Of a stretch of 64,000 bases of DNA, positions 32,083-40,636 are shown one piece after another. Position numbers and translations under genes: made by a program. Below the pieces are notes generated by a model. That model did no database searches. It saw only the letters and a list, made by a program, of their open reading frames with translations, and was not told the origin of the DNA. Origin of the DNA: an uncultured Dehalococcoidaceae bacterium (GTDB lineage: Bacteria; Chloroflexota; Dehalococcoidia; Dehalococcoidales; RBG-16-60-22); NCBI GenBank assembly GCA_964493435.1, contig CAZBMB010000005.1, positions 70,588-134,587 of the forward strand, read 5' to 3'. The first letter of the stretch is position 1. Each line of letters starts with the position of its first letter.

Positions 32083-32163
32083 AAGACGCTAATGCATCGC
32101 AGCTTCATACGCATTGCTAACACTCAGGCTAAATGCTATAATTGTAGGACTGTATTCCCAGAG

Positions 32164-32652
32164 ATGGTAGAGCGAAAGCGGTTTATCGCCGTTATCGGTG
32201 GCAGCGACTGTACCCCAGAAGAAGCCAGGCTGGCGGAGGAGGTGGGGCGAGAAATCGCCAGAAGTGGTGCGGTACTGGTCTGCGGGGGATTGGGCGGTAT
32301 CATGACTGCCGCCTGCAAAGGCGCCAGCGCTGACGGTGGATTGACCATCGGCGTACTCCCAGGCAGTAGCAGACAGACGGCCAACCGGTATGTGCAGATA
32401 CCAATCGTGACCAACCTGGGCGAAGCGAGGAATGTTATCGTAGTCAAGAGTGCTGAGGCAGTCATAGCTATCGGCGGCGGTTATGGCACTCTATCCGAAA
32501 TTGGCCACGCGCTGCGCAATGACATCCCGGTCATCGGCCTGAATACCTGGTCGCTGTCACGGAATGCCCGGCCGGATAACTCCATCGCCCCTGCTCAGAA
32601 CCCACAGGAGGCGGTGGAAAAAGCGCTCAATATGATAAATGACCGTAGTTAA
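32164..32652 (+). CDS. TIGR00725/LOG-like Rossmann-fold nucleotide-binding protein
   Basis: Contains IAVIGGSDCTPEE...LVCGGLGGIM...AIGGGYGTLSE. ATG at 32164; the track ORF start at 32092 adds an unconserved leader. Confidence 0.65.
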   Translation: MVERKRFIAVIGGSDCTPEEARLAEEVGREIARSGAVLVCGGLGGIMTAACKGASADGGLTIGVLPGSSRQTANRYVQIPIVTNLGEARNVIVVKSAEAVIAIGGGYGTLSEIGHALRNDIPVIGLNTWSLSRNARPDNSIAPAQNPQEAVEKALNMINDRS

Positions 32653-35190: not shown

Positions 35191-36366
35191 TTGAAATTAA
35201 TTATAGTTGGTTTTGGACAGTGTGGCGGCCGAATTGCTGACGAATTTGCCCGACTGAACCGCAGGGCACATGTTCAACGCGGTATCGATATTGTTGCCAA
35301 CGTCTTCGCCGTCAACACCGATGTTGCCGACCTCAGCGGCCTGACCGGCATCAGAGCCGATTATCACCATCGCATCCTCATTGGTGGCCGTAAGACTGGT
35401 GGCCACGGCGTGGGTAAAATCAACGAGCTGGGCGCGGAGATCGCCAAAGAGGATGGCGATAAGATAATTGAAACGATAAGAACCAGCAAGCGTTTCACGG
35501 AAGCGGATGCGTTCCTGCTCATCGCGGGCGCGGCCGGCGGTACCGGTTCCGGCGCACTTCCCGTAATAACGCAACTGATTAAAGAGCGCTATGTGGATAA
35601 GCCAGTATATAACCTCGTTGTCCTGCCCTTTGAGCATGAAGAAGCCACCGAGGAAAGAACCATATACAATGCAGCTACTTGTCTGAAATCAGCCTATCTG
35701 GTGGCGGACGCCATCTTCCTGGTTGATAACCAGAGATACGTAATGAAAGATGCGTCAATTAGAAGCAACCTAGCCAAAATTAATGCCCTGATTGCTGACC
35801 CATTCTACAATCTGCTCTGCGCCGGCGAGGAAAAAAAGCACCAGTACATCGGGGCGAAGATACTTGATGCCGGAGATATCATACAGACGCTGACCGGGTG
35901 GACAGCCATTGGTTACGGGCGGTCCGAAATCTCATTAGCCAAGAAAATAATGGCCCGTACGCGCGATTTCAGAAACAAGGCCACGGAAGCCCAGAAGGGA
36001 TCCCAGGCCATGGATGAAGCCATCAGTGGACTTTCAATGAAGGTAAATCCGATAGATTCAAAGAGAGCGCTCTATCTGGTTTCTGCCCCGCCCAAAGAAA
36101 TGAATGTCGATCTCATCAAGGAACTCGGCACGTATCTCAAGAGCCTCGCTCCCGAGGCAGTCATAAGAAGCGGTGATTATCCCAGGGAGAAGGGGCTGCT
36201 AGACATCACCGTCATCCTGTCGGAACTCAGTGATGTGGAGAAGGTGAGGAACTACTTTACCAAGACAATCAGCCTCATTACCGCTCTGAAGAAGAGACAG
36301 GAAGGCATTGAAGACAAGTACCGGGGTATAGAGGTCACCCTCAAAGATATACCATCCTTAATTTAA
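35191..36366 (+). CDS. Tubulin/FtsZ-superfamily GTPase, CetZ-like, paralog 1
   Basis: MKLIIVGFGQCGGRIADEF (tubulin/CetZ-type GQxG T1 loop), AGAAGGTGSG (tubulin-signature-like T4 loop), FLVDNQR, LDAGDIIQTL (T7-like), and a C-terminal ...KDIPSLI. TTG start. Confidence 0.8.
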   Translation: MKLIIVGFGQCGGRIADEFARLNRRAHVQRGIDIVANVFAVNTDVADLSGLTGIRADYHHRILIGGRKTGGHGVGKINELGAEIAKEDGDKIIETIRTSKRFTEADAFLLIAGAAGGTGSGALPVITQLIKERYVDKPVYNLVVLPFEHEEATEERTIYNAATCLKSAYLVADAIFLVDNQRYVMKDASIRSNLAKINALIADPFYNLLCAGEEKKHQYIGAKILDAGDIIQTLTGWTAIGYGRSEISLAKKIMARTRDFRNKATEAQKGSQAMDEAISGLSMKVNPIDSKRALYLVSAPPKEMNVDLIKELGTYLKSLAPEAVIRSGDYPREKGLLDITVILSELSDVEKVRNYFTKTISLITALKKRQEGIEDKYRGIEVTLKDIPSLI

Positions 36367-36436: not shown

Positions 36437-36961
36437 CTATCGAGAAAGCTTGGCGTATATACTCCAAGCCTGAACTACGGTTTCTTCGCGGAGTTGCCAG
36501 GCCCCAGCAAGCGCCTCTTCCCTCCTCTTCTTAGCCTCCTCTATCCGCTCCTCGCACCTCCTCTCCGCCTGTTCTTTTTCCTTCTTGAACGCTCTTTCTG
36601 CCTGCGAAACGGCATCATCACGCGCTTTAAGTGCCGAGGCTAACATCTCATCGCGTGCTTGCATAGCCTCTTTTACCGCTTCATCATGGGCTTTCTCCGC
36701 CTGCTGCTCGGCACGCTTGTAGGCTTTGGCAATTTGTTGCTCATTGGCCCGATAGGCACTGGCCACCTGCCGCTGCGCTTCCATGAAAGCAGCGTAAGCT
36801 CTTTCTGCCTGTCCCAATACCTCCTCAAGCGGCGTAGACGGTTGCGCTTCTACTTCGGCGCTGACCTCTTCCACTTCTTCAGGAACGGCTTCAGCCGCTT
36901 CCTCAACTACTTCTTCGGCTTCCTCATTAACCTTTTTGGCCTGTTCCTTTGGGTTCGCCAT
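36437..36961 (-). CDS. Ala/Glu/Lys-rich coiled-coil protein (174 aa), acidic N-terminus
   Basis: Strong AGGAGGT RBS. Composition-biased helical sequence (AERAYAAFMEAQRQVASAYRANEQQIAKAYKRAEQQAEKAHDEAVKEA...). I recognise no enzymatic motif. Confidence 0.7.
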   Translation of the reverse strand: MANPKEQAKKVNEEAEEVVEEAAEAVPEEVEEVSAEVEAQPSTPLEEVLGQAERAYAAFMEAQRQVASAYRANEQQIAKAYKRAEQQAEKAHDEAVKEAMQARDEMLASALKARDDAVSQAERAFKKEKEQAERRCEERIEEAKKRREEALAGAWQLREETVVQAWSIYAKLSR

Positions 36962-37023: not shown

Positions 37024-39195
37024 TTATTCCTCAGTATCTTCATCCTCCTCCTCTACATTATCTTCACCGGCCGGTTCGTCTTTCTTATCCTCATACATCC
37101 GTGCCAGAAAGTTCAAACGTGCTTCTATCTTTTCTTTTCCCTTACCACGAGGCGCCTTTGATTTACCCTTTACATTTGATTCCTTGGCCCTGCCAATTGC
37201 CTGAGCAAAGGCTTTGAGTGTTGCTTCAGCAGTCTCTTCATCAGTTGTTCCAGCTACCTCAGCAACCGGCTCTTCCTCGCGAGATTCCTCTGCCTCACCA
37301 ATAGATTTTTCAAAAGCTTTTAACGATGCGTCAGCTGCTTCCCTCGCCTCATTTCCTTCTGCCTCAACGCGCAGAATGGCCCGCTCAAACGCTCCCATGG
37401 CCGCTTCTGCTGCCTCTTTGGCAACCCGCGTAGTCTCAGCGGTTGCCTCCTTGGCAGCCCGCACCGTGGCTTCAGCAGCCTGTTTAGCTGCCTTCGCAGA
37501 TTCCTTGGTGGTCTTTTTTGTCTCCTGACTTATTGACTCGACCCGACTTATCGCTTCTTCAAAGGCCTTCACCGAGGTTTCGGCAGCCTCTCTGGCAGCT
37601 CTGGTAGCCAGCTTGGTAGCTTCTTTGACCGCTTTAATTGATTCATCAGCCGTATCTTTGGTTTCCTTGCCAATTGCCTCTGCCTTGCTTATTACCTCCT
37701 GGGAGGCTGTGGTCGCCGCCTCGGCGGCTTCTTTGGCAATACGCGTCGCTTCTTCAATCGCTTCCTGAGATGCCTGCGTTGCGGCCTCGTTTGTTTCCCT
37801 GGCTTCTCGTCCAATTTCCTCAGCTCGACTTATTGCCTCCTGAGAGGTACTGGTTGATGCTTCGGCGGCTTCCTGGGCAGTTTTAATCGCTGTTTCCGCG
37901 GCTTCCTGGGTTGCCTGGGCCGAAGTATCAGCGATCTCTTTGGCCTCCTGACTGACCTGTTCAATCTGCGCTATCGCCTCCTCCGAGGCACGGGCCGATG
38001 CTTCAGCCCTCTCCTGCGTAGTCGTAACCGCGTCCTCTGCCCGCCTCAACGTCTCCACGCTCATCTTATCAACCCGCTCCAGCGCTGTCTCAAAGGTCCT
38101 GACCAGTTTATCATGCGCGGCTTGTATCTCATCTCTTACCGCTTCGGCACGACTGATTGCTTCCTGAGACTCTCTTGACGATGCGTCAGCGGCTTCTTTG
38201 GAGGCAGCGATTGCCGCGTCAACAGCCTCCCTGGTAGCCATGGTAGCTTCCTCTATCGCTGCCCTGTTTTCCAGGCTTATTGCCTCAGCTCTATTTATAG
38301 CTTCCTTTGAAGCCTTGGCGGAATTCGCGGCCGCCAGCTTGGTATCCTTGCTAATCGCCTCGGCACGAACCATTGCTTCCTGCGATGTTCTCAATGAGGT
38401 CTCGGCAAGCCCCTTGGCATCGGTGCTGATTTTATCCGCCCGGAACGCCACTTCCTTAGCCGCTTTTGACGCTGCCTCGGACATTTCCTTTGTTGTCTGG
38501 CTGGCTCTCTCCGCCCTGATGGCAGCCGCTCTGGCTTCCCTTAGCGATGCTCCTGTAGCTATTTGGGCATCATGGCTCACCTTCTCTGCCTTGCCGGAAG
38601 CTTCCTTGGCAGCCTTAATGGATTCCTCAGCCGCTTCTTTGGCAAGCCGACCAGCTTCTTCAGCCTTGTCAAGTTCCTCTTTAGCTGCTTTAGCCGCAGA
38701 CCCAGCAACCTCCCTAGCCTCAGCAGTTATTTCAGTGACCCGAGTCAGCCCTTCTTCTGAAGCAACGTATGCCGCCTCCGCCGCTTCCATGGCCTCTTTG
38801 CTTATCTCCTCGGCACGATTTATGGCTTCCTGAAAACGCTTGGTGATTGCTTTGGCGGCTTCTTTTGGAGTACGCGCTGTTTCCTCAGCCCGTCTTATCG
38901 CCTCTTCAGCGGCAGCAATAGCAGCATCCGCGCTTTCCCGCACCTCCCGGTTGACCTCATCCGCACGCTTTATCGCCTCTTCGGCAGCTTTTCTGGCGGC
39001 GTCGGCAGCTTCTTTTGCCTCCAGGCTGATCTGCTCGGCACGCTTTATCGCTTTCTGAGCAGCAACGGTGGTCGACCCAGCCGCCTCCATAGCGGCACGA
39101 CTCAGCTGTTCCGCCCGGGCAACAGCCTTCTCAAAGGCGCCGATTTCTTGCTCAGCGCTATCCAGTACTTCACGCGATGGTGCTTCTCTCGCCAT
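37024..39195 (-). CDS. Large Ala/Glu-rich repeat coiled-coil protein (about 723 aa) with a basic patch and an acidic C-terminal tail
   Basis: More than 20 recurrences of an (E/K)A(I/L)x(R/K)(A/V)(E/D)x(I/V)(S/G) unit. C-terminus reads KGKSKAPRGKGKEKIEARLNFLARMYEDKK...EDNVEEEDEDTEE. ATG at 39195 (GAGG upstream), with an alternative GTG at 39204. Confidence 0.8.
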   Translation of the reverse strand: MAREAPSREVLDSAEQEIGAFEKAVARAEQLSRAAMEAAGSTTVAAQKAIKRAEQISLEAKEAADAARKAAEEAIKRADEVNREVRESADAAIAAAEEAIRRAEETARTPKEAAKAITKRFQEAINRAEEISKEAMEAAEAAYVASEEGLTRVTEITAEAREVAGSAAKAAKEELDKAEEAGRLAKEAAEESIKAAKEASGKAEKVSHDAQIATGASLREARAAAIRAERASQTTKEMSEAASKAAKEVAFRADKISTDAKGLAETSLRTSQEAMVRAEAISKDTKLAAANSAKASKEAINRAEAISLENRAAIEEATMATREAVDAAIAASKEAADASSRESQEAISRAEAVRDEIQAAHDKLVRTFETALERVDKMSVETLRRAEDAVTTTQERAEASARASEEAIAQIEQVSQEAKEIADTSAQATQEAAETAIKTAQEAAEASTSTSQEAISRAEEIGREARETNEAATQASQEAIEEATRIAKEAAEAATTASQEVISKAEAIGKETKDTADESIKAVKEATKLATRAAREAAETSVKAFEEAISRVESISQETKKTTKESAKAAKQAAEATVRAAKEATAETTRVAKEAAEAAMGAFERAILRVEAEGNEAREAADASLKAFEKSIGEAEESREEEPVAEVAGTTDEETAEATLKAFAQAIGRAKESNVKGKSKAPRGKGKEKIEARLNFLARMYEDKKDEPAGEDNVEEEDEDTEE

Positions 39196-39393
39196 CAACC
39201 TCACACCAAATTGTTTTACACAATTCTAATATACGTTTACTATATTTTCAACATTTTTTATTAAGTCAAGAATTCTTCCAGATAATATTTGGGCAATCAT
39301 TGACTTCACCACAGTCTTATTTTTACTCTCCCCCGACGTTATTACCAGATACTTTATTACTACGTTTATCAGTACCTCCCTAAAGCGCAGAGA

Positions 39394-39423
39394 TTGACAT
39401 TATACTACAAGTGTGTTTAAAAT
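39394..39423 (+). promoter_or_regulatory. Promoter of tubulin-like gene 2
   Basis: ATTGACATT (-35 at 39394-39399), 18 nt, TAAAATAAC (-10 at 39418-39423), within an AT-rich 250-bp divergent intergenic region. Confidence 0.5.
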
Positions 39424-39457: not shown

Positions 39458-40636
39458 ATGAAACTAGTAGTCGTAGGTTTCGGACAGTGTGGTGGTCGAA
39501 TTGCTGACGAGTTTGCCCGTTTGAACAAGAAAGCTAAAAGCCAGCGTGGCATTGAGATAGTCACCGGTTGCTACGCGGTCAATGCCGATGCGGCTGACCT
39601 GAGCGGTCTCACCAGCATCAAAAAGGATTACCAGCATAGGATCCTCATCGGTAGTCGCAAGACAGGCGGCCACGGCGTGGGTAAGATAAACGAACTCGGC
39701 GCTGAGATCGCCCGAGAGGATGGCGATAAGGTAATCGACGCGATAAGAACCACAAAACGTTTCTTTGAGACAGATGCCTTCCTGTTTATTGCCAGTGCCG
39801 CCGGTGGCACCGGTTCCGGGTCAGTCTCAGTGATGACGCAGCACATAAAAGAAAGATATGTCGATAAGCCTATTTACAATCTCATCGTCCTTCCCTTTGA
39901 ACATGAGGAAACCACCGAGGACCGAACCATGTATAATACCGCCACCTGTTTAAAGTCCTCATACTCCGTGGCTGACGCCGTATTTCTGGTGGACAACCAG
40001 AGATTCGTACGCAAGGATTCTTCTATCAAAGGTAATATTTCCAAAATCAACGCCATGATTGCGGAGCCGTTCTACAACATGCTGTGTGCCGGCGAGGAAA
40101 AGAAAGCCAAGTACATTGCCTCAAAGGTGCTTGATGCCGGCGATATTATCCAGACGCTGGTTGGCTGGACGGTAATCGGCTACGGTAAGTCGGATATCCC
40201 TCTAATCAGGTTCCGTCGCGAATCAAGGCGTGATTTCAGGGCTAAAGGAGATGAGACCTTAAAGGGCATCCAGGCCATGGATGAAGCCATAAGCGAGCTG
40301 TCACTGAAATGCAATCCTGTTGATTCCAAGAGATCTCTTTACCTCATCTCGGCGCCGGGCAAAGAGATGAACATGGACATGGTTAAAGCTCTCGGGGATT
40401 ATATGAGGGATATTGCACCGGAAGCCCTTATCAGAAACGGCGATTATCCACGTGAAAGAGGCGTGCTTGATGTTACCGTAATCCTGTCCGAACTCAGTGA
40501 TGTGGAAAAGGTGCGAACTTACTATACCCAGTCCACCCAGCTTATCCCCGAGTTCAAGAAGCGACAGGAAGAAACCGAAGTCAAACTGAGAGCCATAGAA
40601 GACGCCTCCAAAGACATCCCGTCCCTGCTCTCTTAA
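39458..40636 (+). CDS. Tubulin/FtsZ-superfamily GTPase, CetZ-like, paralog 2
   Basis: MKLVVVGFGQCGGRIADEF, ASAAGGTGSG, FLVDNQR, LDAGDIIQTL, and a C-terminal ...KDIPSLLS. About two-thirds identical to paralog 1 by eye. The ATG at 39458 has a GAGGTG RBS; the track start at 39413 adds 15 unconserved residues. Confidence 0.8.
   Translation: MKLVVVGFGQCGGRIADEFARLNKKAKSQRGIEIVTGCYAVNADAADLSGLTSIKKDYQHRILIGSRKTGGHGVGKINELGAEIAREDGDKVIDAIRTTKRFFETDAFLFIASAAGGTGSGSVSVMTQHIKERYVDKPIYNLIVLPFEHEETTEDRTMYNTATCLKSSYSVADAVFLVDNQRFVRKDSSIKGNISKINAMIAEPFYNMLCAGEEKKAKYIASKVLDAGDIIQTLVGWTVIGYGKSDIPLIRFRRESRRDFRAKGDETLKGIQAMDEAISELSLKCNPVDSKRSLYLISAPGKEMNMDMVKALGDYMRDIAPEALIRNGDYPRERGVLDVTVILSELSDVEKVRTYYTQSTQLIPEFKKRQEETEVKLRAIEDASKDIPSLLS

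Follow-up and report, generated by a model that had tools for sequence, protein, structure and literature searches.

A long helical repeat protein as a probable partner of a CetZ-like tubulin paralogue in Dehalococcoidia

Introduction

Several tubulin-family polymers of bacteria are accompanied by a helical or coiled-coil protein that is not a GTPase and is encoded next to them or acts on them: TubY for TubZ, BtubC for BtubAB, and ZapB, EzrA and SepF for FtsZ. In haloarchaea, cell shape is under the control of CetZ-type tubulins, for which we know of no described partner. Here, a 64-kb window (the whole stretch of 64,000 nucleotides, positions 70,588 to 134,587 on the forward strand of contig CAZBMB010000005.1, GenBank assembly GCA_964493435.1) from an uncultured Dehalococcoidaceae bacterium was analysed. 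Between two CetZ-like tubulin genes it carries a gene (37024..39195, minus strand) for a 723-residue, Ala/Glu-rich repeat protein. The gene and its product are called the rod gene and the rod protein below, and residue numbers refer to the 723-residue frame. Judging from its sequence and from the genes that accompany it, the rod protein probably belongs to a bacterial tubulin-type cytoskeleton, as a partner not described so far. Compared to TubY, BtubC, ZapB, EzrA and SepF, it is far longer and purely repetitive, it has no helix–turn–helix (HTH) domain, tetratricopeptide repeats or transmembrane (TM) segments, and it shows no homology to these proteins in Pfam or NCBIfam.

The overall build of the rod protein recalls FilP, Scy and crescentin, which also possess long uninterrupted helical rods with a mixture of heptads and hendecads and short non-helical ends; the cytoskeletal role in this comparison is theirs. 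Scy and FilP have a 51-residue repeat, whereas the unit of the rod protein has 25 residues (7+7+11), its core is mostly Ala, its gene is tied to a tubulin-family gene, and no sequence similarity was found. In magnetotactic bacteria, an acidic repeat adaptor, MamJ, is encoded beside the gene of the filament protein MamK and presumably links this filament to a different structure. The rod protein shares with MamJ its acidic, repetitive and Ala/Glu-rich character and the position of its gene adjacent to that of a filament protein. Unlike the tubulin-family partner considered here, MamK is actin-like, and MamJ has no continuous helical rod and no homology to the rod protein.

Pairing with one tubulin clade

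In every sampled genus of the window's family, four genes stand in the same order: a tubulin-like gene, a gene for a protein of 160–180 residues, a gene for a repeat protein of 649–823 residues and a second tubulin-like gene, with both middle products rich in Ala and Glu. In the window, the first tubulin gene (TubA-type, 35191..36366, plus strand), which encodes 391 residues ending in ...TLKDIPSLI, is convergent with the rod gene, and the second (TubB-type, 39458..40636, plus strand, 392 residues) is divergent from it. Both products are above the cut-offs of the tubulin-family GTPase models, with 118 and 113 bits for PF00091 and 63.7 and 56.4 bits against 21.6 for CetZ_C (PF21011).

The arrangement extends well beyond the family. 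Species-representative genomes were scanned for related loci with two automatically chosen search patterns, one of which, RAE[EKA]I[SG]xEAM, lies in residues 20–150 of the rod protein. The scan gave 109 stretches confirmed to encode a relative, and 79 loci were kept, nearly all in metagenome-assembled genomes labelled Dehalococcoidales, Dehalococcoidia or Chloroflexota. The rod gene is located beside tubulin genes in almost every kept locus with enough flank. The CetZ-like proteins of the retrieved loci (173 distinct sequences) were placed in a tree with the FtsZ of the window genome as its root. Each of the 79 tubulin genes convergent with a rod gene belongs to a single clade of 83 (support 0.999), the TubA-type. 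The exceptions in this clade are a locus broken by an assembly gap (L038), a locus with a divergent rod protein missed by the search pattern (L146), a gene at a contig end (L158) and the G042 case, which is weighed in the Discussion.

Only the window's family and a small number of others have a TubB-type gene divergent from the rod gene; elsewhere it stands at another locus, and it is also present in genomes without a rod gene. TubB-type and other paralogues occur without a rod gene in several families. A sequence-only reading of the window, made earlier from its letters and open reading frames (ORFs), had suggested that the rod protein could bind the neighbouring GTPases. A genomic link holds for the TubA-type paralogue (79 of 83) and fails for the pair as such.

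The pairing of TubA and the rod gene is kept in a second order of Dehalococcoidia, and CetZ-like genes are present in 47 of 251 evenly sampled Dehalococcoidia genomes. It is also found in Dehalococcoides mccartyi, a disc-shaped, wall-less, cultured bioremediation organism, where a gene for a 441-residue homologue ending in ...NRLEYLAKMYAANKARRQNDPGAKDTEDDD is convergent with a gene annotated "Tubulin-like protein CetZ"; the genome was assigned to this species through the accessions of its tubulin. This distribution is best read as that of a module that would be specific to Dehalococcoidia and built around the TubA-type CetZ-like paralogue. A published phylogeny records CetZ-like sequences in the Chloroflexota–Dehalococcoidia but no partners for them (PMC9871819), and no paper was found that describes the rod protein or its pairing with CetZ-like genes.

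The D. mccartyi homologue (L120:2281-3606; 487 residues in a related strain) is far less Ala-rich than the rod protein and has an aromatic-rich N-terminal part, and its repeats are barely detected by a hidden Markov model (HMM) describing the 25-residue unit. Relatives in this species are named "hypothetical protein" in databases and a fragment is named "ATPase, partial". The small-protein gene is missing between the rod homologue and the TubA-type gene of D. mccartyi, and a test for a fusion of the small protein with the rod was negative there.

A deep third clade of CetZ-like genes (L038:342-1520, L132, L133, L155) encodes proteins that start with GxGQCGCN... and end in ...KNLP(S/D/R)L... 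These genes are often arranged in tandem pairs and never stand beside a rod gene. Further paralogue types end in ...DVPTLL.

Architecture of the rod

The BLOSUM62 autocorrelation of the rod protein has its top peak at a lag of 25 residues (z = 16.6 against 300 shuffles), additional peaks at lags 47, 50, 75 and 100, and helical fine structure at lags 3–4, 7, 11 and 18. The first half of the rod (residues 23–322; 38230..39129, minus strand) consists of twelve 25-residue units in perfect register, each of which is made up of 7+7+11 residues. They read EAIxRAExISxEAKEAAxxAxKAAx and correspond to residues 26–325 in the 726-residue frame of the longest ORF. An HMM built from these twelve units finds 21 stretches in the rod protein at E ≤ 0.005. 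In the second half (residues 323–632; 37300..38229, minus strand), units are spaced by 22, 25, 36 and 47 residues, and the HMM stretches group into super-units of 25+22 = 47 residues.

The consensus unit from 792 ungapped units of 89 orthologues is EAISRAEEISKEAKEAAEASAKAAQ. In these orthologues, successive units are spaced by 25 residues in 1145 instances, followed in frequency by 36, 11, 47, 22 and 33 residues, and the spacings follow 25 + n × 11. Insertions and deletions (indels) between orthologous rods are multiples of 11 residues in 386 of 586 cases (192 of 11 and 122 of 22 residues) and mostly of 25, 4, 7 or 18 residues in the rest, counts that come from phylogenetically non-independent sequence pairs and describe a pattern, not a statistical test. 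Eleven residues make three helical turns, and the rod length therefore shifts without rotating the helix faces.

Orthologous repeat units are 78% identical, compared to 36% for units within one protein, so the repeats are old and individually conserved, not homogenised. Tandem Repeats Finder detects no DNA-level array in the rod gene, which rules out a recently expanded DNA repeat and shows an old repeat that is present at the protein level only.

The unit has the features of a regular α-helix with one distinct face. Ala and hydrophobic residues form a stripe with a period of 3.565 residues in the first half (25/7 = 3.571) and 3.61 residues in the second (47/13 = 3.615). Its conserved Ala/Ile positions are 2, 3, 6, 9, 13, 16, 17, 20, 23 and 24 of the unit, and large hydrophobics make up 15% of the rod residues. 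Opposite-charge pairs at i/i+4 number 88, compared to 38 expected (z = 9.3), and in the consensus unit they form a salt-bridge ladder composed of E1–R5, E7–K11–E15 and K14–E18–K22–E1'. AlphaFold2, run with 18 orthologues, predicts, at low overall confidence, near-continuous helices spanning residues 8–454 and 464–632. If the 625-residue helix is continuous, the rod would be ~94 nm long (625 × 0.15 nm).

Single α-helix domains of the ER/K type and (EAAAK)n helices resemble the rod in their dense i/i+4 network, in their high content of Ala and Glu/Lys/Arg and in the lone helix that AlphaFold2 predicts for the rod. ER/K domains typically contain well above 36% charged residues, whereas the rod has 36%, and the rod displays a conserved Ala/Ile stripe that a free single helix would not need.

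The whole protein carries a net charge of -43 and contains 25.8% Ala, 17.9% Glu, 8.1% Lys and 7.4% Arg, with neither Cys nor Trp. Its most hydrophobic 19-residue segment has a mean Kyte–Doolittle value of only 0.51, and a secreted or S-layer protein was rejected since there is no signal peptide or TM segment. In these respects the sequence-only reading was sound: it had described a 723-residue Ala/Glu-rich repeat protein free of TM helices and signal peptide, and the repeat turns out to be more regular than it stated, with a 25-residue period. Its extended helical scaffold is likewise supported by the AlphaFold2 helices, the Ala/Ile stripe of period 3.57–3.61 and the excess of i/i+4 salt bridges.

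Ends of the rod

Both ends of the rod carry conserved sites. The N-terminal segment itself (residues 1–22; 39130..39195, minus strand) is variable and acidic, with a net charge of -4. The best-conserved stretch of the rod (residues 20–150; 38746..39138, minus strand) covers units 1–5, includes P110, F121, I125 and R127 as invariant residues, and is a possible binding site. Towards the middle of the rod conservation drops, and it returns to a high level at residues 575–625 and in the C-terminal motif.

The repeats are followed by residues 633–686 (37138..37299, minus strand), which consist of an acidic disordered linker (633–653), a short helix (654–668) and a Gly/Lys-rich basic patch (669–686). 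The patch, KGKSKAPRGKGKEK, is predicted to be disordered, has a net charge of +6 and is lineage-specific. Next comes a conserved C-terminal helix (residues 687–705; 37081..37137, minus strand), a putative docking helix. It contains the motif IEARLNFLARMYE (residues 690–702) with the family consensus RLxxLxxM(Y/F), and R, L, L, M, Y and E are invariant. The pattern RL[DEN]x[LM]xxM[YF] is present in 95 of the 97 rod proteins examined, and AlphaFold2 models a block of ten residues here (691–700) with a mean predicted local distance difference test (pLDDT) score of 77. The invariant residues lie on one side of the helix and look like a protein-docking face. The protein ends in an acidic disordered tail (residues 706–723; 37027..37080, minus strand) with a net charge of -12; a tail of ~20 residues with a median net charge of -4 is found family-wide. 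The basic patch, the motif and the acidic tail are the three C-terminal elements that the sequence-only reading had listed, and all three are present.

Family searches

The rod protein of the window has no match above cut-off in Pfam or NCBIfam and none in PHROGs, and the Pfam and NCBIfam scans revealed no domain of EzrA, ZapA/B, SepF, DivIVA or TubY in it. The NCBIfam Scy model (NF041483) does not match the rod protein and gives the small neighbour 16.6 bits against a cut-off of 1040 (E = 0.0011). A profile search of Protein Data Bank (PDB) sequences returned de novo designed helical bundles only, which reflects their idealised A/E/K/R helices. An exhaustive profile search of 1.84 billion representative proteins gave 274 matches at E ≤ 1e-3, mostly short fragments of the N- or C-terminal part; five long matches were scanned with Pfam and rejected as unrelated or family-less (VgrG, ankyrin, histidine kinase and others). 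An exact look-up of 13 rod proteins (that of the window and 12 orthologues, with the chosen start codons) found none of them in the protein collection. The repeat family could not be named from the letters, and the Pfam, NCBIfam, PHROGs and PDB-sequence searches do not supply a curated family for it.

A metagenomic protein from JGI (P0001, 499 residues) combines ~150 N-terminal residues of the 25-residue repeat with a C-terminal part that is globular and resembles an enzyme. A chimeric gene call or a misassembly may lie behind it.

Phasin_2, ApoLp-III and the apolipoproteins A1/A4/E resemble the rod in having Ala-rich amphipathic helices with 11/22-residue periodicity. Unlike them, the rod is strongly acidic and tubulin-linked, and the matches of its orthologues are not positionally conserved. 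Phasin_2 (PF09361) scores 28–55 bits, against a cut-off of 24.9, in five of 18 orthologues (L024, L025, L026, L027 and L028) and does not match the protein of the window. The matches are located at different positions (103–205, 457–552, 495–588), mostly without a single significant stretch, and the window genome (93.6% complete) yielded no PhaC_N (PF07167). Membership in Phasin_2 was rejected as compositional on these grounds: non-orthologous positions, sums of weak stretches, no match of the window protein and no PhaC. ApoLp-III reaches at best 18–22 bits against a cut-off of 36.3, in distant orthologues only, and Apolipoprotein A1/A4/E falls short likewise. Orthologues that exceed the Phasin_2 threshold run the risk of being annotated as phasins, and polyhydroxyalkanoate production is not known for their genomes.

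The rod gene is under purifying selection, with a ratio of non-synonymous to synonymous substitution rates (dN/dS) of 0.13–0.17 against four genus-level orthologues. For comparison, the values are 0.11–0.18 for the small downstream protein and 0.02–0.04 for the tubulins.

The rod gene and its neighbours

The longest ORF of the rod gene (37024..39204, minus strand) opens with GTG and encodes 726 residues. The start is likely the ATG at 39195, which gives a product of 723 residues with the stop codon at 37024-37026. It is favoured over the GTG at 39204 because the N-termini of the orthologues (MAREAPS, MMAREI or MVREVS) agree with it and a GTGAGG Shine–Dalgarno box lies ahead of it. A promoter-like site of the rod gene (39223..39251, minus strand; TTGAAA-17-TAGAAT, 10/12, a consensus match only) is located in the 262-bp divergent region, which also holds a promoter-like site of the TubB-type gene (39394-39423). 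The longest ORF of the latter gene opens at a GTG at 39413. Every orthologue starts with MKLVVVGFGQCGG, which corresponds to the ATG at 39458, and the GTG is probably 15 codons too early; the longer reading would overlap the promoter-like site.

Two DNA-level observations of the sequence-only reading find simple explanations. The recurring blocks are real: GCTTCCTGAGA (at most one mismatch) occurs eight times in the window compared to 1.3 expected, five of the eight being within the rod gene, and is the antisense of repeated SQEA codons. The long antisense ORF rich in Ala, Ser and Leu also exists (38198..38833, plus strand, 211 residues). It is most likely not a gene and was rejected as one, the opposite (rod) frame being under purifying selection; it appears to be a by-product of GCN/GAR-rich codons.

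Downstream of the rod gene and on the same strand lies the gene of a small helix protein (36437..36961, minus strand, 174 residues), and the two genes are probably co-transcribed. A high-confidence structure prediction of the small protein (pLDDT 83) has a disordered acidic segment (residues 1–43) followed by a single helix (residues 44–173). Repeats of 11 residues that share a conserved A-[Y/F/W] position make up this helix, in which indels measure 11 or 22 residues. Profile–profile comparison finds no relationship between the rod and the small protein (probability 9%). Farther away, between pth and eno, an ORF of 186 residues (32092-32652) contains a Gly-rich ...GGGYGTLSEIGHAL... motif.

The window genome has a separate, canonical ftsA–ftsZ pair on contig C1, and the module of tubulin and rod genes is therefore additional to the division machinery. 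SepF and a full-length MreB were not found in this genome. Its FtsZ has the C-terminal motif ...ELDVPSFLRRP, both CetZ-like paralogues end in KDIPSL(I/L) (36337-36366 and 40607-40636), and a D-[IV]-P-S-[FL]-L peptide is common to all three tubulin-family proteins of the genome. FtsZ and the two paralogues might be rivals for one anchor; the genome has FtsA, and no SepF turned up in it.

Discussion

On balance we lean, with a little more belief than doubt, towards the rod protein being a scaffold or spacer of a CetZ-like cytoskeleton separate from FtsA–FtsZ, which together with the small helix protein would form the non-GTPase part of that system. The Ala/Ile face is conserved and 140 degrees wide, which argues for helix–helix or helix–surface packing and against a free single helix. 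The stripe period is close to 3.6, so the assembly should be almost unsupercoiled, and the phase-preserving indels imply that one continuous face is kept along the whole rod. The rod protein would self-associate through the Ala/Ile seam to give a rope of two or more strands with almost no supercoiling, and its conserved ends would dock on filaments of TubA (and possibly TubB) or on the small helix protein. Such a rope could serve as a spacer, cross-linker or ruler that organises the filaments, perhaps in the service of the shape of these cells, which probably have no wall.

Several points weigh against this scaffold. The seam is mostly Ala with two large hydrophobics per 25 residues, so that a classical coiled coil would have a weak core. 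Confidence in the AlphaFold2 model is low (mean pLDDT 55, predicted template modelling score 0.19), which is to be expected when a fibrous protein is modelled as a monomer, and a monomeric single α-helix is compatible with the data. The 25-residue unit is ~3.75 nm long and does not match the subunit repeat of tubulin-family filaments, which is ~4.0–4.4 nm. Given this mismatch and the variable unit lengths, lattice matching, with one unit bound per subunit, is unlikely. Lastly, in G042 the TubA-clade gene is accompanied by a ~100-codon remnant of the rod gene with a stop codon. Apart from the three exceptions that limits of detection or assembly account for, this is the only instance in which a TubA-type gene was seen without a linked, intact rod gene, a situation that the sequence-only reading had named as one that would speak against the link, and even there the remnant is present. 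At this locus (L131:1517-1923, G042:C170), the TubA and TubB genes stand in tandem, and a TAA interrupts the remnant of the rod N-terminus. Apparently the rod gene was lost or became a pseudogene here, unless the assembly is in error.

A bolder version of the scaffold, which we consider unlikely, holds that the Dehalococcoidia, including D. mccartyi, possess a second, archaeal CetZ-type tubulin cytoskeleton beside FtsA–FtsZ, whose architecture would be set by a helical ruler. The rod and its short single-helix partner would then space or bundle the filaments and help to set cell shape. The lengths of rod orthologues range from 441 to 852 residues, and the modelled ruler would measure roughly 60–120 nm and evolve in phase-preserving 11-residue steps. 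A weak external lead comes from D. mccartyi BTF08, in which the tubulin homologue btf_0551 and the nearby hypothetical protein btf_0548 are abundant in pure culture and are reduced or not quantified in co-cultures with barrel-shaped, not disc-shaped, cells (PMC8163811); btf_0548 is at most a candidate rod homologue.

Among the alternatives to a tubulin-dependent scaffold, an intermediate-filament-like protein of the crescentin, FilP or Scy kind, rich in coiled coil and polymerising by itself while the tubulin only positions or regulates it, is improbable and still deserves a hearing. The long uninterrupted rod, the non-heptad periodicity and the short non-helical ends would fit such a protein, and the small neighbour has its weak match, far under cut-off, to the Scy model. 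However, the mostly Ala core, with 15% large hydrophobics, and the lack of a sequence relationship to any such family argue against it, and the near-strict pairing with one tubulin clade suggests that the rod depends on the tubulin.

Slightly less probable again is a rod that runs along CetZ-like protofilaments, with the stripe facing the filament, and acts as their stabiliser or as a sequestering factor, much as stathmin, tropomyosin or the filamentous proteins inside axonemal microtubules do. A stripe period of 3.57–3.61 is near that of an undistorted helix, so the stripe would be nearly straight; the indels keep the helical phase, the protein is highly acidic and salt-bridged, and its monomer model is a single helix. 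These features suit a ligand of the filament surface, whereas the ~3.75 nm unit is incommensurate with the 4.0–4.4 nm subunit repeat given above, and the variability of unit lengths (25, 36, 47, 22 and 33 residues) speaks against a lattice match.

It is very unlikely that the rod protein is a tether that anchors filaments to membrane or DNA by a lysine cluster and an amphipathic helix placed after a coiled coil. TubY of type III plasmid partition is built in this way, with a coiled coil followed by a lysine-rich basic tail and an amphipathic helix, and binds membranes and DNA (PMC7762940). The protein of the window has a corresponding +6 Lys/Gly patch followed by an amphipathic helix, which had led the sequence-only reading to propose membrane binding by the C-terminal end. 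That proposal finds no support, since orthologues do not conserve the basic patch: the 25 residues that precede the C-terminal motif have a median net charge of +2 (range -5 to +6), and the charge is negative in D. mccartyi and others. The hydrophobic moment of the C-terminal helix is also unremarkable, an acidic tail follows it, its invariant residues are atypical of lipid-binding helices, and there is no HTH domain.

The least credible alternative, a phasin-, apolipoprotein- or late-embryogenesis-abundant-like amphipathic coat or protectant with a functionally meaningless tubulin adjacency, can draw on an 11-residue periodicity typical of such proteins, the Phasin_2 scores of five of 18 orthologues above the gathering cut-off and weak ApoLp-III and Apolipoprotein matches, but it is set aside in view of the missing Phasin_2 match of the window protein, the non-orthologous, summed-up matches of the others, the lack of a PhaC in the genome, the net charge of -43 and the synteny with TubA conserved over two orders.

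With the rod protein read as a probable partner of the TubA-type tubulin, two conserved non-GTPase proteins accompany one bacterial CetZ-like paralogue across two orders, one of these lineages including D. mccartyi. They and their conserved motifs are candidates for studying a tubulin-like cytoskeleton in bacteria that appear to lack MreB and probably have no cell wall. In addition, the rod offers a clean natural case of a helix with a period of 25/7 that evolves its length in hendecad quanta.

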